The translations under genes were made by a program, and so were the position numbers. The notes under the pieces were generated by a model, which saw only the letters and a list, made by a program, of their open reading frames with translations, was not told the origin of the DNA and ran no database searches. From a virus (lineage: Duplodnaviria; Heunggongvirae; Uroviricota; Caudoviricetes), in IMG/VR virus record IMGVR_UViG_2630968766_000009: DNA of 40,446 nt; one strand, written 5' to 3'. Position 1 is the first letter of the stretch. Each line of letters opens with the position of its first letter. Shown here piece after piece: positions 6,842 to 33,969 of the stretch.

Positions 6842-7170
6842 CAGTTCACCACCTGTTCAAACTCTGCGCTGAACTCAACACGCAGCATACTGACCCGCGA
6901 CGACCATTTTGCGCAGGTCACCTTTATCTGCCGCCACTCATAAGGCGGCGTCCACAGAAAGGATTTCCAGCCCCCGTGCTCAGCCAGAAACGACTCAAGC
7001 GCCGTGGCCTCCCAACGGGGAACAGAAAGCGTCACGCTGTACGTTTTCAGGTCGGCATTCAGCCCGGCAGGCGCTCGCTGAGAATAGCCATCACCAAAGC
7101 GCACCTTTCTTACGGAAGGGGCCGAAGCCACATCCATACCGGGTTTCACTTTCCAGCGGAAGGTTTTCAT
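6841..7170 (-). CDS. M: Tail tip protein M
   Basis: 109-aa ORF, lambda gpM length, coupled to H upstream. Confidence 0.9.
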   Translation of the reverse strand: MKTFRWKVKPGMDVASAPSVRKVRFGDGYSQRAPAGLNADLKTYSVTLSVPRWEATALESFLAEHGGWKSFLWTPPYEWRQIKVTCAKWSSRVSMLRVEFSAEFEQVVN

Positions 7171-9728
7171 CGTCCACCTCCGGAGAACAGACCACCATCG
7201 CGCATCTGCCCGGTCACAACATCCATTGCCGCCTTACGGGCTACGTCATAAACCGCCTTCAGCGCCTGTGGCCCTATCTGACCGTTCGTGCCGTCGTTGT
7301 TAATCACCACATGGTTATTCTGCTCAAACTTCCCGGACGCCTGCGAGCGGCTGTCCGCCATGCTGCCCGGTGTACCGACATAACCGCCGGTGGCATAGCC
7401 GCGCATCAGCCGGTAGAGATTCCCCACGCCAATCCGGCTGGTTGCCTCCTTAGTGAAGACAAATTCACCACGGTGAACAATCCCCGCTGGCTCATATTTG
7501 CCGCCGGTTCCCGTAAATCCTCCGGTCGCAAAATGGAATTTCGCCGCAGCTGCCTGAATGGCTGTACCGCCTGACGCTGATGCGCCGCCACCAACAGCCC
7601 CGCCAATGGCGCTGCCGATACTCCCGACAATCCCCACCATTGCCTGCTTAAGCAGAATTTCTGTCATCATGGACAGTACGGAACGGGTGAAGCTGCGCCA
7701 GTTCTGCTCACTGCCGGTCAGCATCGCCGCCATATTCTGTGCAATACCATCAAAGGTCTGCGTGGCTGCACTTTTAACCTGCGACATACTGTCCGTGGCG
7801 CTCTCTTCCCACTCACTCCAGCCGGACTTCAGGCCTGCCATCCAGCTCCCGCGAAGCTGGTCTTCAGCCGCCCAGGTCTTTTTCTGCTCTGACATGACGT
7901 TATTCAGCGCCAGCGGATTATCGCCATACTGTTCCTTCAGGCGCTGTTCCGTGGCTTCCCGTTCTGCCTGCCGGTCAGTCAGCCCCCGGCTTTTCGCATC
8001 AATGGCGGCCCGTTTTGCCCGTTGCTGCTGTGCGAATTTATCCGCCTGCTGCGCCAGCGCGTTCAGGCGCTCCTGATAGGTGACCTTGTCGCCAAGTGCA
8101 GCCAGCTGGCGTTTGTACTCCAGCGTCTCATCTTTATGCGCCAGCAGGGATTTCTCCTGTGCAGACAGCTGGCGACGTTGCGCCGCCTCCTCCAGTACCG
8201 CGAACTGACTCTCCGCCTTCCACAAATCCCGGCGCTGCTGGCTGATTTTCTCATTCGCTCCGGCATGCTTCTCCAGCGTCCGGAGTTCTGCCTGAAGCGT
8301 CAGCAGGGCAGCATGAGCACTGTCTTCCTGACGATCGCCCGCAGACACCTTCACGCCGGACTGTTTCGGCTTTTTCAGCGTCGCTTCATAATCCTTTTTC
8401 GCCGCCGCCATCAGCGTGTTGTAATCCGCCTGCAGGATTTTCCCGTCTTTCAGTGCCTTGTTCAGTTCTTCCTGACGGGCGGTATATTTCTCCAGCGGCG
8501 TCTGCAGCCGTTCGTAAGCCTTCTGCGCCTCTTCGGTATATTTCAGCCGTGACGCTTCGGTATCGCTCTGCTGCTGCGCATTTTTGTCCTGTTGAGTCTG
8601 CTGCTCAGCCTTCTTTCGGGCGGCTTCAAGCGCAAGACGGGCCTTTTCACGATCATCCCAGTAACGCGCCCGCGCTTCATCGTTAACAAAATAATCATCC
8701 TTGCGCAGATTCCAGATGTCGTCTGCTTTCTTAAACGCAGCCTCTGCCTTAATCAGCATCTCCTGCGCGGTATCAGGACGACCAATATCCAGCACCGCAT
8801 CCCACATGGATTTGAATGCCCGCGCTGTCCTCTCTGCCCAGGTCTCCAGCGTGCCCATGTTCTCTTTCAGGCGGCGGGTCTGGTCATCAAACCCCTTCGT
8901 TGCGGCCTCGTTCGCCGCCTGCAATGCCCCGGCTTCATCGCCGGAACGCTGCAACTGAGCAACATACGCAATCTGCTCCGCCGTCACGTTATGGAACTGG
9001 CGTGCCATCGCCGTCAGCCCCGACGTCGGGTCTGTGGTCAGCTTCCCGAAGGCTTCAGCGACCTTGTCCACCTCCACGCCGGATACAGAGGAGAAACGCG
9101 CCACACTCTGGCTGATGGACGCAATCTGAGCCTCACCGCTTACCCCCGCCTTGACCAGTGCGCTGAGTGACTCGCTGGTCTGGTTAAACGTCAGCCCTGC
9201 CGCCTGCCCGGCTCTGGACAGGACCAGCATACGATCTGCCGTCAGTCCCGCCTGATTGCCGGAAAGGACCAGCGTTTTGTTGAAATCGGACAGGGTTGAG
9301 TTGCCCTGATACCAGGCATACGCCAGCGCACCGGTCGCCACCGCCAGCGAGGTGGCCCCCACCATCGGCAGGGTGATCGCACCGGCAAGCCCCCGGAACA
9401 TGGGGATCATCCCGCCGAAGGAGTCCTTAACCTGACCACCCTGTTGCAGCAGGATCAGCCACGGACTTTGCCCGCCTGCAAGCTGCGTGGCCACGTCGGT
9501 GAACTGTGCAGGCAGCATACGCATGGCGGCTTTATACTGCCCGACGGAAATCCCCGCTTTCTGTGCAGCCAGCGCCTGTCGGCTCAGCGACTGTTCAACG
9601 ACTGCCGCTGTTTTTTTCGCATCACTTTCCGTACCGGAAAAATGACGCCTGACTCTGGCCATCTGCTCGTCAAATCTGGCCGCATCCAGACTCAAATCAA
9701 CGACCAGATCGCCTACCGGTTCAGCCAT
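7167..9728 (-). CDS. H: Tail tape measure protein H
   Basis: 853-aa ORF (lambda gpH length) with a coiled-coil-rich centre and a Gly-rich C-terminal part. Confidence 0.95.
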   Translation of the reverse strand: MAEPVGDLVVDLSLDAARFDEQMARVRRHFSGTESDAKKTAAVVEQSLSRQALAAQKAGISVGQYKAAMRMLPAQFTDVATQLAGGQSPWLILLQQGGQVKDSFGGMIPMFRGLAGAITLPMVGATSLAVATGALAYAWYQGNSTLSDFNKTLVLSGNQAGLTADRMLVLSRAGQAAGLTFNQTSESLSALVKAGVSGEAQIASISQSVARFSSVSGVEVDKVAEAFGKLTTDPTSGLTAMARQFHNVTAEQIAYVAQLQRSGDEAGALQAANEAATKGFDDQTRRLKENMGTLETWAERTARAFKSMWDAVLDIGRPDTAQEMLIKAEAAFKKADDIWNLRKDDYFVNDEARARYWDDREKARLALEAARKKAEQQTQQDKNAQQQSDTEASRLKYTEEAQKAYERLQTPLEKYTARQEELNKALKDGKILQADYNTLMAAAKKDYEATLKKPKQSGVKVSAGDRQEDSAHAALLTLQAELRTLEKHAGANEKISQQRRDLWKAESQFAVLEEAAQRRQLSAQEKSLLAHKDETLEYKRQLAALGDKVTYQERLNALAQQADKFAQQQRAKRAAIDAKSRGLTDRQAEREATEQRLKEQYGDNPLALNNVMSEQKKTWAAEDQLRGSWMAGLKSGWSEWEESATDSMSQVKSAATQTFDGIAQNMAAMLTGSEQNWRSFTRSVLSMMTEILLKQAMVGIVGSIGSAIGGAVGGGASASGGTAIQAAAAKFHFATGGFTGTGGKYEPAGIVHRGEFVFTKEATSRIGVGNLYRLMRGYATGGYVGTPGSMADSRSQASGKFEQNNHVVINNDGTNGQIGPQALKAVYDVARKAAMDVVTGQMRDGGLFSGGGR

Positions 9729-14532: not shown

Positions 14533-15832
14533 TTACACTGGTGTGTTCAGCAAATCGTTAACGGCATCAGATGCCGGGTTACCTGCAGCCAGCGGTGCCG
14601 GTGCCCCCTGCATCAGACGATCCAGCGCAGTGTCACTGCGCGCCTGTGCACTCTGTGGTGCTGCGGCCAGAATGCGGCGGGCCGTTTTCACGGTCATACC
14701 GGGGGTTTCTGCCAGCACGCGTGCCTGTTCTTCGCGTCCGTGAGCCTCCTCACAGTTGAGGATCCCCATAATGCGGCTGTTTTCTGCCGCAACCGCAGCG
14801 GTGATCTGCGCGTTCACGTCCGGCTGCGCCGCGCTGGCGTTTTCGCCCTCCGTCGCTTGCACCACGCCAGTAACGTCAGCCTGCGAAGCAGTGGCTGAAA
14901 CAGTTGTTGATTGAGTCTCTTTGGTCATTCGCCCTCCTGAGAGACGGGATTTACGTGCATCCAGTGCATCACGCATAACGGTGATCGCATCGGTGCTGTT
15001 GACAAGTTCATCAGCCAGTCCGGCATCAATGGCCTCCTGACCGCTGTACACTGCAGCCTCGGTATCCAGCACAGCCTGCACGGACAGGCCGGTATATGCC
15101 GACACCTTCTGCGCAAACATCCGGCGGGTTGCATCCATCCGGGACTGCAGTGTCTCCCGGACGTCATCCGGAAGATGGCTGTAGGGGTTGCCATCCACCT
15201 TATGGCTGCCGCTGTAAATCAGCGTGATTTCCACGCCCTGTTTCTCCAGCGCAGCACCGTAATTACTGTGAGCCATCATGACGCCGATGGAGCCTGTCCG
15301 GGCGGTCTGCGTGACCAGACGCCGGGAGGCGGCGCTGGCAAGCAGCTGCCCTGCACTGCAGTTCATGTCATTGGCCAGCGCCCATACCGGTTTTATGTCA
15401 CGCACACGGGCGATGATGTCAGCGCAGTCAAATGCCCCTGCCACCATTCCGCCGGGCGTGTCCATATCGAGCAGAATGCCGTCCACCATCGGATCGCTGG
15501 CAGCCTGTTGCAGACGGGCGATAATGCCGTTGTAACCGGTCATCCCCGAGTACGGCTGCAGCGCCCGCGTCCGGCTGACCAGCGTGCCGGACACCGGCAG
15601 CACGGCGATGCCGTTCATGACCTGATAACTGCGGGCCTGTCGTGGTCCGTCATCATCACCGGATAATGCCAGCGTCGCGAGTGCCTCCTGGGCAGTCAGG
15701 CTGTCGCCGGACACCGCATCCGTCAGGCGGCTGATCCCAAGCTGGCCTGCAAGCGCACAAAAGAAAACCCGCGCATAGGCGGGTTCAAGCATCAGCGGCT
15801 CATTAAAGGCCATGCTGGCAATATGCGGGAGA

Positions 15833-15852
<20 letters not shown>
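14533..15852 (-). CDS. C: Head maturation protease / scaffold C (Nu3 scaffold is the in-frame 3' part)
   Basis: Long frame 14533-15987. The lambda-like product begins at ...TAELRNLPHIASMAFNEPLML with a GTG codon at 15852, giving 439 aa (lambda gpC length). ClpP-like serine protease region. Confidence 0.8.
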
Positions 15853-19533
<3,681 letters not shown>

Positions 19534-19559
<26 letters not shown>

Positions 19560-20079
19560 TCAGCAACCCCGGTATCAGTTCATCCAGCGCGGCTGCTTTG
19601 TTCATGGCTTTGATGATATCCCGTTTCAGGAAATCAACATGTCGGTTTTCCAGTTCCGGAAAACGCCGCTGCACCGACAGGGGGATCCCGTCGAGAATAC
19701 TGGCAATTTCACCTGCGATCCGCGACAACACGAAAGTACAGAATGCGGTTTCCACCACTTCAGCGGAGTCTCTGGCATTCTTCAGTTCCTGTGCGTCGGC
19801 CTGCGCACGCGTAAGTCGATGGCGTTCGTACTCAATAGTCCCTGGCTGGAGATCTGCCTCGCTGGACTGCCGCAGTTCTTCAACCTCCCGGCGCAGCTTT
19901 TCGTTCTCAATTTCAGCATCCCTTTCGGCATACCATTTTATAACGGCGGCAGAGTCATAAAGCACCTCATTACCCTTGCCACCGCCTCGCAGAACGGGCA
20001 TTCCCTGTTCCTGCCAGTTCTGAATGGTACGGATACTCGCACCGAAAATGTCAGCCAGCTGCTTTTTGTTGACTTCCAT
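19534..20079 (-). CDS. nu1: Terminase small subunit Nu1
   Basis: 181-aa ORF beginning MEVNKKQLADIFGASIRTIQNWQEQG (HTH), overlapping the start of A as in lambda. Confidence 0.95.
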
Positions 20080-20268: not shown

Positions 20269-20467
20269 CGTAACCTGTCGGATCGCCGGAAAGGACCCGC
20301 AAAATGATAATAATTATCATCTACATGTCACAACGTGCATCTACGCCATCAAACCACGTCAAATAATCAATTATGACGCAGGTATCGTATTAATTGATCT
20401 GCATCAACTTAACGTAAAAACAACTTCAGACAATACAAATCAGCGACACTGAATACGGGGCAACCTC

Positions 20468-20662
20468 ATGTCAACTAAGAACAGAACCCGCAGAACAACA
20501 ACCCGCAACATCCGCTTTCCTAACCAAATGATTGAACAAATTAACATCGCTCTTGAGCAAAAAGGGTCTGGGAATTTCTCAGCCTGGGTCATTGAAGCCT
20601 GCCGTCGGAGACTAACGTCAGAAAAGAGAGCATATACATCAATCCAAAGTGATGATGAATAA
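20468..20662 (+). CDS. Small basic protein, possibly ribbon-helix-helix (YlcI/DUF3950-like)
   Basis: 64-aa ORF with an Arg/Thr-rich N-terminus followed by IRFPNQMIEQINIALEQKG...WVIEACRRRL; sits between cos and bor on the strand opposite the late genes. Confidence 0.4.
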   Translation: MSTKNRTRRTTTRNIRFPNQMIEQINIALEQKGSGNFSAWVIEACRRRLTSEKRAYTSIQSDDE

Positions 20663-21021
20663 ACATCCCGGTTTCTTCCACCATCGCACCGGAAAAGCGA
20701 CTATGAGGGTAACCCTGCGTCTGTCAGCACAGTAAAACCCGGTGTGCATCGTTTTTGATTATTCCCGCACACTCACGCAGAAGGAATTCCCCGTCGGGCT
20801 ACGGTCATGGTTAATGCGGGAATACGGCGACGATACAGCGCAGCTAAAAGGGTAATGGACAGAAAGAGCGGTTTATTTCATTCCACAGGATTCTGAGTGC
20901 CCCCCTCCTCCAATAGGCTGAGCATCCACCTATATAGTTTTAATTTTCATCAATCCATTTAACTATCGTTTAATTGTTGTCACATAGGATTCTGCCGTTT
21001 TTAAAAATGCAGGATAATAAG

Positions 21022-21315
21022 ATGAAAAAAATGTTGTTTTCTGCCGCTCTGGCAATGCTTATTACAGGATGTGCTCAACAGACGTTTACTGTTGGAAACA
21101 AACCGACAGCAGTAACACCAAAGGAAACCATCACCCATCACTTCTTCGTTTCGGGAATTGGACAGGAGAAAACTGTTGATGCAGCCAAAATTTGTGGCGG
21201 CGCAGAAAATGTTGTTAAAACAGAAACCCAGCAAACATTCGTAAATGGATTGCTCGGTTTTATTACTTTAGGCATTTATACTCCGCTGGAAGCGCGTGTG
21301 TATTGCTCACAATAA
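21022..21315 (+). CDS. bor: Bor lipoprotein (serum resistance)
   Basis: ORF-track frame trimmed to MKKMLFSAALAMLITGCAQQ (lipobox LITGC), 97 aa, lambda Bor length; opposite strand to the lysis genes, as in lambda. Confidence 0.9.
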   Translation: MKKMLFSAALAMLITGCAQQTFTVGNKPTAVTPKETITHHFFVSGIGQEKTVDAAKICGGAENVVKTETQQTFVNGLLGFITLGIYTPLEARVYCSQ

Positions 21316-21346
21316 TTGCATGAGTTGCCCATCGATATGGGCAGCT

Positions 21347-21808
21347 CTATCTGCACTGCTCATTAATATACTTCTGGGTTCCTTCCAGTTGTTTTTGCAT
21401 AGTGATCAGCCTCTCTCTGAGGGTGAAATAATCCCGTTCAGCGGTGTCTGCCAGTCGGGGGGAGGCTGCATTATCCACGCCGGAGGCGGTGGTGGCTTCA
21501 CGCACTGACTGACAGACTGCTTTGATGTGCAACCGACGACGACCAGCGGCAACATCATCACGCAGAGCATCATTTTCAGCTTTCGCATTAGCTAACTCCT
21601 TCGTGTATTTTTCATCCAGTGCAGCAACATCACGCTGGCGCATCTGCATGTCAGTAATTGCCGCGTTCGCCAGCTTCAGTTCTCTGGCATTTTTGTCGCG
21701 CTGGGCTTTGTAGGTAATGGCGTTATCACGGTAATGATTAACAGCCCATGACAGGCAGACGATGATGCAGATAACCAGAGCGGAGATAATCGCGGTTACT
21801 CTGTTCAT
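21347..21808 (-). CDS. Rz: Spanin inner membrane subunit Rz
   Basis: Frame 21347-21820 trimmed to [36 protein letters not shown]... (153 aa), very close to remembered lambda Rz; ATGA overlap with the R stop. Confidence 0.9.
21406..21588 (-). CDS. Rz1: Spanin outer membrane lipoprotein Rz1 (embedded in Rz, +1 frame)
   Basis: 60-aa ORF wholly inside Rz, with lipobox VVVGC and the proline-rich [18 protein letters not shown] tract. Confidence 0.8.
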
Positions 21809-22302
21809 TGCTGACCCCACAAACAGATTTCACGCTCAATCTCACGACGAGTCATGAGACCTTTCCATTGCTTACCGCCAGCATATGTCCAGCGACGTAG
21901 CTGATCACATGCGCCTTTGATATCGCCCTGGTTTATTTTGCGAAGAAGCATCGATGTTCTGAAATTGCCAGCACCCACGTTGTAAACGAATGAGTAAAGA
22001 GCGCCGCGCATTGTTTCCGGTATATCGACTTTGATGTACGGGTTAATTTGTCTGGCGACCGTGGCAAGGTCTTTATTCAGGAGGGCTTTGCATTCTGCTT
22101 TGGTATACGTTTTACCGAGCATGATGTCTTTTCCTGTATGCCCGTGACATACAGTCCATACACCAACAATATCTTTGTATGGTATGTAGCTGACACCTTC
22201 CAGACCATCGTTACCACTTGGGCCAGTGATTAACACTGATGCTATAGCAATTGCTCCGCCACCAATAGCAGCAGCAACGGCTTTTCGTAATGATGGAGGC
22301 AT
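21805..22302 (-). CDS. R: SAR endolysin (T4-lysozyme family, phage 21 R-like)
   Basis: 165-aa ORF with a Gly/Ala-rich N-terminal signal-anchor-release segment ([20 protein letters not shown]) followed by a lysozyme domain. This is not the lambda transglycosylase R. Confidence 0.85.
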
Positions 22303-22517
22303 TATTCACCTCTCGCAGCCTTGCGCTTATCTTCTTTAATCTTGAAATAAAGGTTTGTCAGGTACGTCAGCAGGCCAAATACCAGGCTACCCAGCACACC
22401 TATTGCTGCCCACTGTGAGGGCGTGACTTTATCGAGCAGCTGTAAAAACCAGTAACCGGCACTACCTGCTGAGGTGCCATAGGCGACACCCGTTGTTAAC
22501 TTATCCATGGATTTCAT
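22302..22517 (-). CDS. S: Pinholin with dual start (phage 21 S-like)
   Basis: Frame 22302-22562 trimmed to [26 protein letters not shown]... (71 aa); the MKSM dual-start motif is typical of holin/antiholin pairs; two transmembrane segments. Confidence 0.8.
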
Positions 22518-23105
22518 AACCCCACCTCGCAGACAAAGCGGGTGTAAATTGAGGGAATACAACGTATCGCAAAAAAGCAGAAACGTAACAGACTCGGAGT
22601 CAGTGAATAACTCAGGTATTGAGTTATCAGCTAATATCGAGACTCAAAAAATGGAAAAACCAGCTCGACGGCGGGTTTAAGCTGTGTGACGAAGTAACCA
22701 CTCTTAACAGCATAACCAATTTTTTACGTACGTAAACCACTGAATGATATTTATGAGAATGCTACCGAGTGTTCAAAACACCACCACAAATACATAAGAA
22801 AATCTCAACAAATAACCAATAAATAATTTCCGGAGTTATTTTTAGTTAATTTAAATTAAACCACCGAATTATAGAACCCCCATAAATAACAGCCATTAAT
22901 ATAAATTAGCTAATAGGTTTATTTTTGTTCAAATAAGAGCCATAAATAGGTTTCGATAGAAAAAGTTCAGATAAAAATAGAGATCTACTTCACAAATTAA
23001 ATGAGAAACTAAAACTTACATCTTGAAATAATCACATTGATTAGATGAATATTTATCGCGCAGTGACATCATTTTTTAATAATAGTTCAAAAAAAAGGGC
23101 TCACG

Positions 23106-24203
23106 ATGAAAAAATTAACAGTGGCAATTTCTGCTGTAGCTGCATCAGTACTGATGGCGATGTCTGCTCAGGCAGCTGAAATTTATAATAAAGACAGTAA
23201 CAAGCTGGATCTGTACGGGAAAGTTAATGCCAAGCACTACTTTTCCTCTAACGATGCAGATGATGGTGATACTACTTATGTTCGTCTGGGCTTCAAAGGC
23301 GAAACCCAAATCAACGATCAGCTGACTGGTTTCGGTCAGTGGGAATATGAATTCAAAGGCAACCGCGCTGAATCTCAAGGTTCCTCCAAAGACAAAACCC
23401 GTCTTGCATTTGCAGGCCTGAAATTCGGTGACTACGGCTCAATCGATTACGGCCGTAACTACGGTGTAGCATACGACATCGGTGCGTGGACTGACGTTCT
23501 GCCAGAATTCGGTGGCGATACCTGGACCCAAACAGATGTGTTCATGACTGGTCGCACCACTGGTGTTGCAACCTATCGTAACAACGACTTCTTTGGTCTG
23601 GTTGATGGTCTGAACTTTGCTGCTCAGTACCAAGGCAAAAACGATCGTAGCGATTTCGATAACTACACCGAAGGTAACGGTGATGGCTTCGGTTTCTCTG
23701 CTACCTATGAATACGAAGGGTTCGGTATCGGTGCAACTTATGCGAAATCTGATCGTACCGACACTCAAGTTAATGCAGGGAAAGTTCTTCCTGAAGTATT
23801 TGCTTCCGGTAAAAATGCAGAAGTTTGGGCCGCAGGTCTGAAATATGACGCTAACAACATTTACCTGGCCACTACCTATTCTGAAACCCAGAATATGACT
23901 GTATTTGCTGATCACTTCGTTGCTAATAAAGCTCAAAACTTCGAAGCTGTTGCACAATATCAGTTCGATTTCGGTCTGCGTCCGTCCGTTGCTTACCTGC
24001 AATCTAAAGGTAAGGATCTTGGAGTATGGGGCGATCAGGACTTAGTCAAATATGTTGATGTAGGTGCAACCTATTACTTCAACAAAAATATGTCTACTTT
24101 CGTTGATTACAAAATCAACCTGCTTGACAAAAATGACTTCACTAAAGCACTCGGTGTAAGCACTGATGACATCGTTGCTGTAGGTCTGGTTTACCAGTTC
24201 TAA
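23106..24203 (+). CDS. nmpC: Phage-encoded general porin (OmpC/OmpF family; NmpC/Lc-like)
   Basis: 365-aa ORF with a signal peptide ([23 protein letters not shown]), porin-like sequence and C-terminal ...VGLVYQF. Preceded by a 540-bp AT-rich region and an AAAAGGG RBS. Confidence 0.9.
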
Positions 24204-24211
24204 TCTGATTA

Positions 24212-24252
24212 CGAAAAAGATATGTTGGGGAGGCTTTGCCTCCCCAACATAT
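24212..24252 (-). terminator. 15-bp-stem hairpin with a T-run on the minus strand (candidate late-leader terminator tR')
   Basis: atatgttggggaggc (24220-24234) pairs with gcctccccaacatat (24238-24252); on the minus strand it is followed by cTTTTT (24219-24214). About 140-180 nt downstream of the Q stop in the late direction. Confidence 0.4.
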
Positions 24253-24339: not shown

Positions 24340-24365
24340 GGGGGCGTTGCAACGCCCCATTTTTA
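24340..24365 (+). terminator. Intrinsic terminator downstream of the porin gene
   Basis: Hairpin gggggcgttgcaacgcccc (24340-24358) followed by aTTTTTaa on the plus strand. Confidence 0.5.
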
Positions 24366-24391: not shown

Positions 24392-24775
24392 TTAATTAGA
24401 GTTATTAACAACGATATCCATCTCTAACCGGATATCTAATGCCATTAACATCCCTTCAATTATGCCCTCAGCCTTCTGTAACCTTTTCCCGATATAACCA
24501 TCAGAGCAGCAATGCTTACCTGCCAGTGACATGAATGTCATACCGACTACATAATAATCTACTAATAAATCGTGCAAATCGCTGTTGTTCTTTTTCAGAC
24601 GGGCCATGCACCCGCAAATGATCATCGCGTCATCGTCACAACATTGCGGGCGAGATTTTACTTTTGAAGGAATTAATCCCTTAAAACCGGCGGCAATGGA
24701 CGACCAGGTCACATCTTCATGATTATTAGCCGCCCACGCTCCCCAACGCTCAAGAACCATCTGAATATCACGCAT
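24392..24775 (-). CDS. Q: Late antiterminator Q (phage 21/82-type, QuuD-like)
   Basis: Frame trimmed to [26 protein letters not shown]... (127 aa) with the Cys-rich motif [13 protein letters not shown]; lies between rusA and the lysis genes. Confidence 0.85.
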
Positions 24776-27281: not shown

Positions 27282-27443
27282 TTTCTAACTCCTGTTTAAT
27301 GTTGACACCGCATTTATGCTGTCACGACACAATTACTTTCTATCCTGCTGTGATGCTGCTGACAGCGGCATCCAATACCTTACCTTCTCAGCATTCTGCA
27401 AAATCGATGACGAGTCATGACCGGTTCGCGTAGCTCAGTGAAA

Positions 27444-28067
27444 TTACTGCAACCTTTCCTGACGGAAATATGGTAACACTCGACTCCACTTATCATCCTG
27501 CCAAGGCTGGAATTTTACATGTGCCGTTTCTCTGGCGAGGATTGCTCGCGCTCTGTTGAGTATCTGGGGATATTCTTGCTCGATAGAAGTAAAGCGACCG
27601 GCTTCGCGGTGCTCCGCGACCTGAAGAAGTGGAGTAACGTTCTGGCAGGCAGTTAACATCACATCACTTGCTCGCCATAACCAAGCAAGTGTGCAAAGTT
27701 CGTTATCAGTGAATTGTTTTGTGATTGGGGATTGTTGAATTTCTCGATCGAGAATATCCAGCACCCAGCGGCGGAACTCTTTGGCTACAGGAGTTCGTGC
27801 AAACATGGCGATCAGGTGAGCGCCGCGCAGGGAGAATACACGCACTTTTTTTCTGTAATTTCCTGAGGTCACTGATTCGATGACCTGAGTCATACCGCTA
27901 GTAAATTCGTCGGCATTCTGGTTGAACAGATTAGTTACTGACTTTGCGCTTTTGTACTGTAAAGCGTTCGCGATTTCGGTAGAGGTCAGCCAGATTCCTG
28001 TCATGCCAGCAACCGGTACAATCGCTTTACCTTGGAAGTTCAGATCTGATCTTGCTACAATATTCAT
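27444..28067 (-). CDS. Bro-N domain antirepressor-like protein
   Basis: Frame 27444-28148; N-terminal LNFQGKAIVPVAGMTGIWLTSTEIANALQY and ...SLRGAHLIAMFARTPVAKEFRRWVLDIL match the Bro-N pattern. Start chosen at MNIVAR (AGGA RBS); the alternative ATG at 28148 overlaps the upstream RHH gene. Confidence 0.65.
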   Translation of the reverse strand: MNIVARSDLNFQGKAIVPVAGMTGIWLTSTEIANALQYKSAKSVTNLFNQNADEFTSGMTQVIESVTSGNYRKKVRVFSLRGAHLIAMFARTPVAKEFRRWVLDILDREIQQSPITKQFTDNELCTLAWLWRASDVMLTACQNVTPLLQVAEHREAGRFTSIEQEYPQILNRARAILARETAHVKFQPWQDDKWSRVLPYFRQERLQ

Positions 28068-28137
28068 GTCGATATTTCCTACGCGGTTATTTTCGATAGA
28101 AGCCCCTGAGGTTGCCGCCAACGGGGCTTCGCTGTTT

Positions 28138-28296
28138 TTAGCGAGCATGTATCCGCTCTCTAAATTTCAATGCCCACACAAGCGCCTGAACAATAGCGGC
28201 GTTCTCAGACATCCCTTCCTCCTGTGCAATTCGCTTGAATTCATCCTTCACATTTTGCGGATAGCGAAGGGTGATTTTTACTTCTTTCTTTTCCAT
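28138..28296 (-). CDS. Arc-like ribbon-helix-helix repressor
   Basis: Frame trimmed to MEKKEVKITLRYPQNVKDEFKRIAQEEGMSENAAIVQALVWALKF... (52 aa); AGGAG RBS 7 nt upstream; RHH beta-strand and helix pattern. Confidence 0.6.
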   Translation of the reverse strand: MEKKEVKITLRYPQNVKDEFKRIAQEEGMSENAAIVQALVWALKFRERIHAR

Positions 28297-28396
28297 TGAT
28301 ATCTCCTTGTGAGGCCATAATGACACCATGAGGCCATAATGCCACCATTGAATTGATGTGGCAATATGGCACCATTCATTTTTTTGGGGATTTCCA
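28297..28396. promoter_or_regulatory. Divergent promoter/operator region with tandem 19-bp repeats
   Basis: gaggccataatgacaccat and gaggccataatgccaccat in tandem, then a third partial copy (gcaatatggcaccat), between the two divergently transcribed RHH genes. Confidence 0.4.
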
Positions 28397-28699
28397 ATGG
28401 CTGATAAACAAGTAAAAAACTATGATAAGTTTAACCTCCGTTTCCCTGATGGGATGCGTGAAGCTATAGCTGAACGTGCCAAGCGTAATGGCCGCTCAAT
28501 GAACTCAGAAATCGTGCAAATACTTGAAGATGCGCTTTATACAGACAGTGCACGAGTGTTCACCGTTGAAGATGAAGTGAATCACTCAGGGAATGTAGCA
28601 ATAGATCCCGTGCAACTTGAGAAATTAATGGAAAAAGTGATAAACAAGGCATTAATGGGCTTTACAGGATCGCCTGCAAAAAAAATTGATAAAAAATAA
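28397..28699 (+). CDS. Mnt/Arc-like ribbon-helix-helix repressor
   Basis: Frame trimmed to MADKQVKNYDKFNLRFPDGMREAIAERAKRNGRSMNSEIVQILEDAL..., close to the P22 Arc/Mnt RHH motif (FNLRxP...NGRSxNSEI), with about 50 extra C-terminal residues. Confidence 0.65.
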   Translation: MADKQVKNYDKFNLRFPDGMREAIAERAKRNGRSMNSEIVQILEDALYTDSARVFTVEDEVNHSGNVAIDPVQLEKLMEKVINKALMGFTGSPAKKIDKK

Positions 28700-28738
28700 A
28701 AAAATTATTAGAAACTTCTGCTATATGACTAAGGATAA

Positions 28739-33507: not shown

Positions 33508-33969
33508 ATGAGAATACTAGGTGTTAGGGCGGCGCCCAAAGTTACATCTTTTGTTGTATATTGCACTGATGAGTCTGCACTCAAATGTGTTGATGTTATT
33601 AAAATACCTTCGACCTTAGACACACCAGAAAAATTAAAGTATGTGCGAAATAACATCCTCGACATTCTTAATTTATATAATGTTGAATTAGCTGCTATAC
33701 GCGTTACTGAATCAAACTCTGATAATCTTAGCATTGACCGCCTTTATATAGAAGCTGTTATTCAAGAAGCATTTTCAAGCAGTGATGTAAGAAGATATTA
33801 CACCATTAGAAAATCTGGTATGAAGTCATCATTGAACCTAACAGAGATCGAGTATAAAGAAATATTGAAGTCACACCGTAATATAAATGGAATCGATAAT
33901 TCTGGTTTTACAACTGAAACAAATGAAGCTGTTTTGGCTGCACTATCTGCGGAGGTAAGGGGATGCTGA
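33508..33969 (+). CDS. Hypothetical protein (153 aa), translationally coupled to the kinase gene
   Basis: AT-rich ORF MRILGVRAAPKVTSFVVYCTDE...; its stop overlaps the kinase start (ATGCTGA). No domain recognised with confidence. Confidence 0.55.
   Translation: MRILGVRAAPKVTSFVVYCTDESALKCVDVIKIPSTLDTPEKLKYVRNNILDILNLYNVELAAIRVTESNSDNLSIDRLYIEAVIQEAFSSSDVRRYYTIRKSGMKSSLNLTEIEYKEILKSHRNINGIDNSGFTTETNEAVLAALSAEVRGC

Follow-up and report, generated by a model that had tools for sequence, protein, structure and literature searches.

The question raised by positions 21347-22517 of the 40,446-nt stretch of phage DNA analysed here (the window) is whether its four lysis genes were assembled by recombination between phages 21 and lambda. 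The lysis regions of these two phages were reportedly first compared by Bonovich and Young in 1991, and the arrangement is said to have been known since then. Lambdoid lysis modules consist of non-homologous holin and lysin types combined with homologues of lambda Rz/Rz1 (PMC2629481). For the window, the initial annotation had proposed a mosaic, in which S and R genes of phage 21 type are joined near the R/Rz border (around 21808) to lambda-type Rz/Rz1 genes. The comparisons described below, with the complete genome of phage 21 (OL657228), with lambda (NC_001416) and with phage 434B (OL657227), the lysis region of which is the DLP12 segment of Escherichia coli K-12 (PMC9119081), make it very likely that this is an intact late-gene lysis cassette (S-R-Rz/Rz1), belonging to a lambdoid prophage and conforming to the canonical phage 21/DLP12 type, and not a new lambda x 21 hybrid.

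Organization of the lysis cassette

The limits first assigned to the cassette, 21347-22517, are exact at both ends: read on the minus strand, the cassette opens with the A of the first S start codon (22517) and closes with the final base of the Rz stop codon (21347). Four overlapping genes, S, R, Rz and Rz1, are read on this strand from 22517 to 21347. These genes and their neighbours are as follows:

22302..22517, minus strand: S, 71 aa, class II holin/pinholin; PF04971 'Bacteriophage P21 holin S', E=2e-35
21805..22302, minus strand: R, 165 aa, signal-anchor-release (SAR) endolysin, GH24 muramidase of the R21/RrrD type; PF00959 Phage_lysozyme, E=9e-45
21347..21808, minus strand: Rz, 153 aa, i-spanin (inner-membrane subunit); PF03245, E=4e-54
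21406..21588, minus strand: Rz1, 60 aa, o-spanin lipoprotein encoded inside Rz in the +1 frame; PF06085, E=3e-20
21022..21315, plus strand: bor/iss lipoprotein gene, convergent with Rz; PF06291, E=6e-31; PGAP name Iss
23106..24203, plus strand: porin gene, intact; PF00267
24392..24775, minus strand: quuD-like Q gene, beyond the porin gene on the S side of the cassette

The ATG of R overlaps the S stop codon, and the R stop and Rz start codons overlap in the tetranucleotide ATGA; Rz1 starts 220 nt into Rz and ends 59 nt before the Rz stop. The 31-nt spacer between Rz and bor contains a 7-bp stem (21326-21332/21337-21343), for which the fold z-score is only -1.64, a T-run is absent and a consensus terminator scan of the spacer made no call; a terminator hairpin is not claimed at this position.

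Properties of the lysis proteins

S matches PF04971 with 121 bits, against a cutoff of 26, over profile positions 1-63 of 64. The protein begins MKSMDK, as does S21, and translation from Met1 (22517) or Met4 (22508) gives products of 71 and 68 aa, respectively; the corresponding S21-71/S21-68 dual start is annotated in phage 21 (OL657228). A purine-rich sequence, GAGGTGGGG, lies upstream of both S ATGs. S is predicted to be a dual-start gene, of which the Met1 form (71 aa) would be the antiholin and the Met4 form (68 aa) the holin. According to a composition test, TMD2 (approximately residues 35-58) is strongly hydrophobic and lies in the sole stretch with a mean Kyte-Doolittle value of at least 1.0 (approximately residues 33-60), residues 8-30 being weakly hydrophobic (mean below 1.0) and composed to 52% of G/A/S/T. 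Identity to the 'EssD' allele of 434B/DLP12 is 100% at the amino acid level and 98.6% at the nucleotide level, compared with 85.9% and 76.4%, respectively, to S21; S is the DLP12 'EssD' allele of the S21-type pinholin family. The holes made by S21 are ∼2 nm in size; they depolarise the membrane and do not pass a cytoplasmic endolysin (PMC6116005).

The PF00959 match of R scores 152.5 bits. R shares 164 of its 165 residues (99.4%) with the R21 chain of PDB entry 3HDE, T118M being the sole difference, and is also a close match to the RrrD structure 4ZPU; at the nucleotide level it is 99.0% identical to R21 and 96.4% identical to the DLP12 gene. The catalytic triad E35, D44 and T50 is present. 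Residues 1-27 are the same as in R21, with R6 and K7 followed by a segment (8-27) that is 65% G/A/S/T, and this N-terminal segment does not differ from the SAR domain of R21. Sec-dependent export, tethering in the membrane and activation upon depolarisation would be expected of R from its 99.4% identity to R21. The pinholin and SAR-endolysin mechanism itself has been established for S21 and R21 (PMC6116005). The original description of S and R as phage 21-type genes, encoding a dual-start pinholin and a SAR endolysin with a lysozyme fold, is in keeping with the PF04971 and PF00959 matches, the MKSM start and the near-complete identity to 3HDE.

Rz and Rz1 match PF03245 (182.5 bits) and PF06085 (72 bits). 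Rz has an N-terminal TMD at residues ∼4-24 and cysteines at positions 14, 18, 99 and 152, including the conserved Cys99 and Cys152 of i-spanins, while Rz1 carries the lipobox VVG-C20-T-S (no Asp at +2), Cys29 and 10 prolines among its 41 mature residues. The pair fits both a two-component spanin and the embedded architecture of the lambda family.

Prophage context

A prophage of E. coli strain A2 that adjoins icd, the integration locus of phage 21 and e14, matches the window at 99.96% identity. The window extends from a tail-fibre gene to the integrase stop codon and includes uninterrupted open reading frames for a tape-measure protein (853 aa), a head protease/scaffold protein (484 aa) and an integrase (380 aa), and over its left 20 kb it shares 97-98% identity with the isolated phages 2H10, PhiR30_1 and Turner. 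Judged by this gene content, the prophage looks complete.

DLP12 of E. coli K-12 (essD-rrrD(ybcS)-rzpD/rzoD-borD), compared via 434B, has the same Q-porin-S-R-Rz-bor layout and the same PGAP names, and is 96.6% identical to the window over 2.9 kb. Several differences separate the two: R and the 5′ part of Rz in the window are nearer to phage 21 than to DLP12, DLP12 Rz has a GTG start and five further amino acid differences, and DLP12 is defective and situated at argU, whereas the window prophage is apparently complete and its near-identical copy adjoins icd. The K-12 porin gene nmpC is interrupted by IS5, whereas the porin gene of the window prophage is intact.

The likeness to DLP12 bears on whether the cassette serves phage release at all, given that the module of that prophage has been suggested to act for the host (PMC7918800). 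Domestication on the model of the K-12 DLP12 lysis operon, with a role in cell-wall turnover, biofilm or vesicle production and not in phage release, would be in line with the DLP12 type of S, of the upstream porin gene, of the quuD-like Q gene and of the nin-region genes, and with the extreme spread of the cassette in E. coli chromosomes. The cassette is covered to at least 80% in 3,587 of 5,426 complete E. coli genomes (∼two thirds), with 503 records at 99% or more; it is labelled essD, rrrD and rzpD by NCBI in these genomes, and in many chromosomes a 4-kb block from the porin gene to bor is 100% identical. Such a role is nevertheless improbable for the window cassette, which lies within a prophage having a full set of uninterrupted lambda-like head, tail, replication, recombination and integrase open reading frames, is part of a prophage that matches phages isolated as plaque formers at 97-98% identity over 20 kb, and is accompanied by an intact porin gene, free of the IS5 disruption seen in K-12. 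Release of phage is the more economical interpretation, and a side-role in the host is compatible with it.

Predicted lysis pathway

A function of the cassette in lysis is predicted from its identity to the studied phage 21 proteins. The pathway outlined here takes its timing, topology changes and activities from those proteins by way of near-identity, the genes, motifs and identities being those observed in the window. At 24252..24220 on the minus strand, just downstream of Q, a GC-rich hairpin of 15 bp with a T-run after it is placed like the late terminator tR′. Q-antiterminated late transcription would start downstream of the quuD-like Q gene and continue into S, R, Rz and Rz1, and to reach S the late transcripts would need to pass antisense through the porin gene, as in DLP12. 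S would yield antiholin (Met1) and holin (Met4), with the holin accumulating in the inner membrane and forming pinholes at a programmed time, at which point the proton-motive force would collapse. In the S21 system, TMD1 of S68 leaves the bilayer and TMD2 oligomerises into the ∼2 nm pinholes, and S71, with its extra N-terminal Lys, delays the pinhole step. R would be exported by Sec and held inactive on its SAR tether until depolarisation leads to its release, refolding and degradation of murein via E35/D44/T50. Finally, the Rz/Rz1 complex, bridging the inner and outer membranes, would disrupt the outer membrane.

The lambda region (S-R-Rz-Rz1 followed by bor; NC_001416, 45186-46752) has the same four-gene order, the same function and the same ATGA overlap at R/Rz. 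Its S and R are of a different kind, S being a large-hole canonical holin of 107 aa and R a cytoplasmic transglycosylase of 158 aa, and no likeness of either to S and R of the window was detected at the DNA level or by BLASTP. Since the S and R proteins are unrelated, the lysis pathways differ: in lambda the endolysin is released by the holin, whereas in the window type a Sec-exported SAR endolysin would be activated by depolarisation caused by the pinholin (PMC6116005).

The lambda homology boundary at the Rz start codon

The blastn alignment of the window with lambda begins at window position 21808 (lambda 45966), which is the A of the Rz ATG, and spans Rz, Rz1 and bor to 20968 at 94.4% identity; no lambda match was detected by blastn in S or R. 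When identity to lambda was scored in 20-nt steps anchored on the Rz ATG, values of 15-45% were obtained over the 200 nt upstream and of 90-100% downstream. Global nucleotide identity to lambda is 40.9% for S and 46.8% for R, at the baseline given by shuffled lambda genes (40.9 ± 1.3 and 47.2 ± 1.2, respectively), compared with 98.3% for Rz against a shuffled baseline of 46.9%, and S and R are therefore far from being as close to lambda as Rz is. BLASTP of R against lambda R gave only E=3.9, on which basis a distant protein homology of the two was rejected, and no alignment was obtained between S and lambda S. The boundary can be stated as a feature:

21808..21809, no strand: lambda homology boundary, with no homology on the R side and 90-100% identity from the Rz ATG; no boundary relative to phage 21

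The breakpoint against lambda that had been placed at about 21808 is, on these plots of identity to lambda and phage 21, right to the base. It is a general property of any comparison between lambda and phage 21. Lambda, phage 21, DLP12 and the window prophage hold one common Rz/Rz1-bor module, and the S and R modules of lambda are unrelated to those of the 21 type.

How widely this junction is shared was assessed with a 301-nt probe (21658-21958) centred on it, which is covered to at least 80% in at least 115 phage records. In phages that carry other endolysins, including lambda, HK630, HK140, mEp234, epsilon34 and g341c, among others, the match starts at probe position 151, equivalent to window position 21808. 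It follows that the Rz module abuts several different endolysin modules at the same base.

Such precision could be accounted for by directed exchange at short conserved 'boundary' sequences between modules, as opposed to selection acting on random illegitimate recombination. Unrelated endolysin modules (lambda R, P22-like lysozyme and R21) all join the Rz module at one base, and the same ATGA stop/start overlap is found in lambda and in the window cassette. Set against this, the sequence shared upstream amounts to just 1-2 bases of the ATGA, identity to lambda is only 20% in the 20 nt that precede, so that no conserved linker is visible, and other phages lose homology inside Rz (∼21692) or inside R (∼22262) and not at gene borders. 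Exchange directed by boundary sequences is accordingly a very improbable source of the junction; the chance is slim, if marginally better, that the meeting of at least three unrelated endolysin modules at the A of the Rz ATG might reflect directed or hotspot exchange at the ATGA overlap itself and not selection on random joins. Were directed exchange to prove true, this family of cassettes would be a tractable system for testing the origin of lambdoid module boundaries.

Collinearity with phage 21

Phage 21 forms one unbroken blastn alignment with the window, starting one base ahead of the S ATG (22518) and ending past bor (20734), at 95.1% identity over 1.79 kb. Identity is 95-100% in every 20-nt step on either side of 21808, and is 100% over 200 nt each side barring single sites. 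Its genes (CPT_21_66 to CPT_21_70, then bor) have the same order, overlaps and embedded Rz1 as those of the window, with products of 71/68, 165, 153 and 60 aa. Phage 21 differs from the window prophage in its diverged S allele (76.4% nt, 85.9% aa), in having two tRNA genes after pR′ where the window prophage has the porin gene, and in the type of its Q gene, which is quuD-like in the window prophage.

Rz of the window is 98.3% identical to lambda (98.0% aa) and likewise 98.3% identical to phage 21 (96.7% aa) at the nucleotide level, with 96.1% nucleotide identity to DLP12; the phage 21 and lambda Rz genes are themselves 98.7% identical. Because the window gene is equally near to both, 'lambda-type' and '21-type' Rz make up a single allele family. 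Rz1 is 99.5% identical to lambda (98.3% aa) and 100% identical to phage 21. Identities of bor are 99.3% to 434B/DLP12, 97.3% (99.0% aa) to phage 21 and 93.5% to lambda. An early remark that Rz/Rz1 are nearly identical to lambda is correct as far as it goes (98.3% and 99.5% nt); the mosaic built upon it, of 21-type S/R joined to lambda-type Rz/Rz1, falls away, given that phage 21 itself carries such Rz/Rz1 genes and is collinear with the window across 21808.

Rz/Rz1 genes closer to lambda together with a discontinuity against phage 21 at the R/Rz border, looked for as the marks of a hybrid cassette, were not found. Phage 21 and the window differ at three Rz sites where DLP12 and lambda both match the window, and since DLP12 agrees there as well as lambda, none of the three points specifically to a lambda donor. 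From Rz to bor there is one site only (21005, upstream of bor) at which lambda and the window share a base that neither phage 21 nor DLP12 has, compared with dozens of sites in bor and its upstream region at which the window, phage 21 and DLP12 agree and lambda is different; a recent derivation of Rz from lambda was rejected on this count. The collinearity of phage 21, taken with the 98.7% identity of its Rz to lambda, leaves no room for a '21-type Rz' in its own right or for a lambda x 21 recombination peculiar to the window.

A recent, lineage-specific recombination at ∼21808 that joined 21-type S/R to the Rz/Rz1 of a lambda-like phage, to which the abrupt start of lambda homology at 21808 and the 98.3% identity of Rz to lambda might have pointed, is thus extremely improbable and is effectively refuted by the collinearity of phage 21, which shows no discontinuity at 21808 and whose Rz is the same, at 98.3% identity with the window and 98.7% with lambda, as well as by the agreement of DLP12 with the window at the three Rz sites, where nothing is specific to a lambda donor, and by the recurrence of the junction across thousands of E. 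coli genomes and no fewer than 115 phage records. What survives of the proposed recombination junction near R/Rz is the sharp lambda boundary at 21808; a discontinuity against phage 21 at that point and a hybrid specific to the window do not. The junction at the Rz ATG is of old date, a border between modules that predates phage 21, DLP12 and the window prophage alike.

The cassette is already known and ubiquitous, and nothing in the comparisons pointed beyond the canonical phage 21/DLP12-type lysis module. No new question is opened by it, since the type phage and roughly two of every three complete E. coli genomes have the same arrangement. Its significance beyond annotation is small: it is best labelled as a lysis module of phage 21/DLP12 type, with a pinholin, a SAR endolysin and Rz/Rz1 spanins, in a lambdoid prophage that is apparently intact.

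Allelic exchange within the 21-type family

Within the canonical phage 21/DLP12-type cassette, the window, phage 21 and 434B (OL657227) were compared site by site, a procedure that gives the nearest reference for each segment and not the direction or age of exchange. The segments distinguished, to which no strand applies, are as follows:

22237..22530: DLP12-type allele segment, comprising S and the first ∼65 nt of R; 58 consecutive informative sites at which the window agrees with 434B/DLP12
21705..22141: phage 21-type allele segment, comprising most of R and the first ∼100 nt of Rz; 27 consecutive sites at which the window agrees with phage 21
21589..21638: Rz patch of 50 bp with five clustered substitutions (A66E, D74N), absent from lambda, phage 21, DLP12 and Turner
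20730-21201: DLP12-type allele segment, comprising bor and beyond; 25 consecutive informative sites

Sliding identity over 22237..22530 is 73-76% to phage 21 and 97-100% to 434B, and over 21705..22141 it is 99-100% to phage 21 and 90-97% to 434B. The two substitutions A66E and D74N in the Rz patch are carried by Rz relative to lambda. The five-site cluster was considered as a feature private to the window and rejected, the surrounding sequence (21560-21670) being 100% identical in phage mEp332, compared with 95.5% in the other matches listed; the patch is a piece of another allele in circulation.

The local mosaicism is thus purely allelic and the product of ordinary homologous exchange among lambdoid prophages: S and bor are of DLP12 type, R and the 5′ part of Rz of phage 21 type, and the patch in Rz of mEp332 type. 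The cassette is a textbook illustration of how modules are shuffled in lambdoid phages, since one module border coincides to the base with a start codon and S, R and Rz have each reassorted on their own. The phage 21-type patch (22141-21705) matches phage 21, an isolate from Paris in the 1950s, at every DLP12-informative site and is ∼99-100% identical to it, with limits at 22237/22141 and 21705/21675. This patch of ∼450-560 bp, in a late region that is otherwise of DLP12 type, has a slim chance of recording a very recent gene conversion between co-resident prophages.

S diverges densely (∼24%) from phage 21 as far as 22323, some 20 nt short of its stop codon. With S 76% and R 99% identical to phage 21 at the nucleotide level and the divergence ending at 22323, the breakpoint between the window cassette and phage 21 falls close to the S/R border and not at R/Rz. 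This breakpoint had been overlooked in the initial annotation. A probe across the S/R border found matches in 147 phage records, 76 of which cover both halves. Homology ends at ∼22314 in phages that match the S half only (mEp460 and Stx1a phages), and matches to R only, in Salmonella phages, run from ∼22262 onward.

Arrangement of the late gene region

Between Q, a quuD-like late antiterminator gene, and the S gene of the lysis cassette lies a porin gene on the strand opposite to both, such that late transcripts must cross it antisense in order to reach S. The following features of the late region were located in the window:

19534-20079, minus strand, small terminase gene
21326-21343, inverted repeat of 7 bp (TGCCCAT-cgat-ATGGGCA) within the 31-nt spacer that separates the stop codons of the convergent genes Rz and bor
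23106-24203, plus strand, OmpC/NmpC-type porin gene (PF00267, E=2e-156)
24220-24252, minus strand, terminator-like hairpin (15-bp stem with 8 GC pairs, 3-nt loop, T-rich tail)
24341-24358, plus strand, second terminator-like hairpin
24392-24775, minus strand, Q gene

The porin ORF is intact and encodes 365 aa, whereas in the K-12 prophage DLP12 and phage 434B the same moron, there named nmpC, is disrupted by IS5. The minus-strand hairpin is downstream of Q, in a position resembling that of the lambdoid late terminator tR′. A simple scan identified no pR′ promoter.

Phage 21, DLP12, and lambda all retain the inverted repeat of the Rz/bor spacer. These tests lend no support to a role as a terminator, because the fold z-score is weak (only -1.64) and a T-run is absent. 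Beyond bor, a non-homologous gap is followed by renewed homology to lambda at 20735-20845 (82%), and window positions 20301-20679 correspond to lambda 48092-48470 with 96% identity. Since this lambda segment adjoins cos, the prophage cos site should be located just to the left of ∼20300, ahead of the small terminase gene, judging from homology.

Alleles of R and Rz

The R product differs from R21, the SAR endolysin of phage 21 (structure 3HDE), by a single substitution, T118M (window position 21950); DLP12 RrrD and phage Turner have a Thr codon at this position, whereas the window has Met. Rz begins with ATG in the window (21808), phage 21, and lambda but with GTG in DLP12 and phage 434B (L003 position 2475). 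Among these four alleles (window, phage 21, lambda, and DLP12), the cryptic K-12 Rz is the most diverged, and DLP12 Rz1 carries P34R.

Comparison with the E. coli A2 prophage

The prophage region of E. coli A2 (L004; NZ_CP028772.1, 2929699-2973699), which adjoins icd, is 99.96% identical to the window, with five mismatches and seven gap openings. Three genes annotated as frameshifted in A2 are uninterrupted in the window:

7167-9728, tape-measure ORF
14533-15987, S49 protease ORF
39304-40446, integrase ORF

Errors of assembly may account for the frameshifts in A2; alternatively, the intact copy may be that of the window.

Positions and names of the early-region accessory genes (window ∼27440-28700 and 33963-35009) were taken from the A2 annotation, with an offset of about +299. 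These accessory genes are a P22 immI-like set, annotated as two Arc-family genes and an antirepressor-like gene with a P22AR C-terminal domain, together with a GNAT acetyltransferase gene and a serine/threonine protein kinase gene adjoining the XRE-type repressor.
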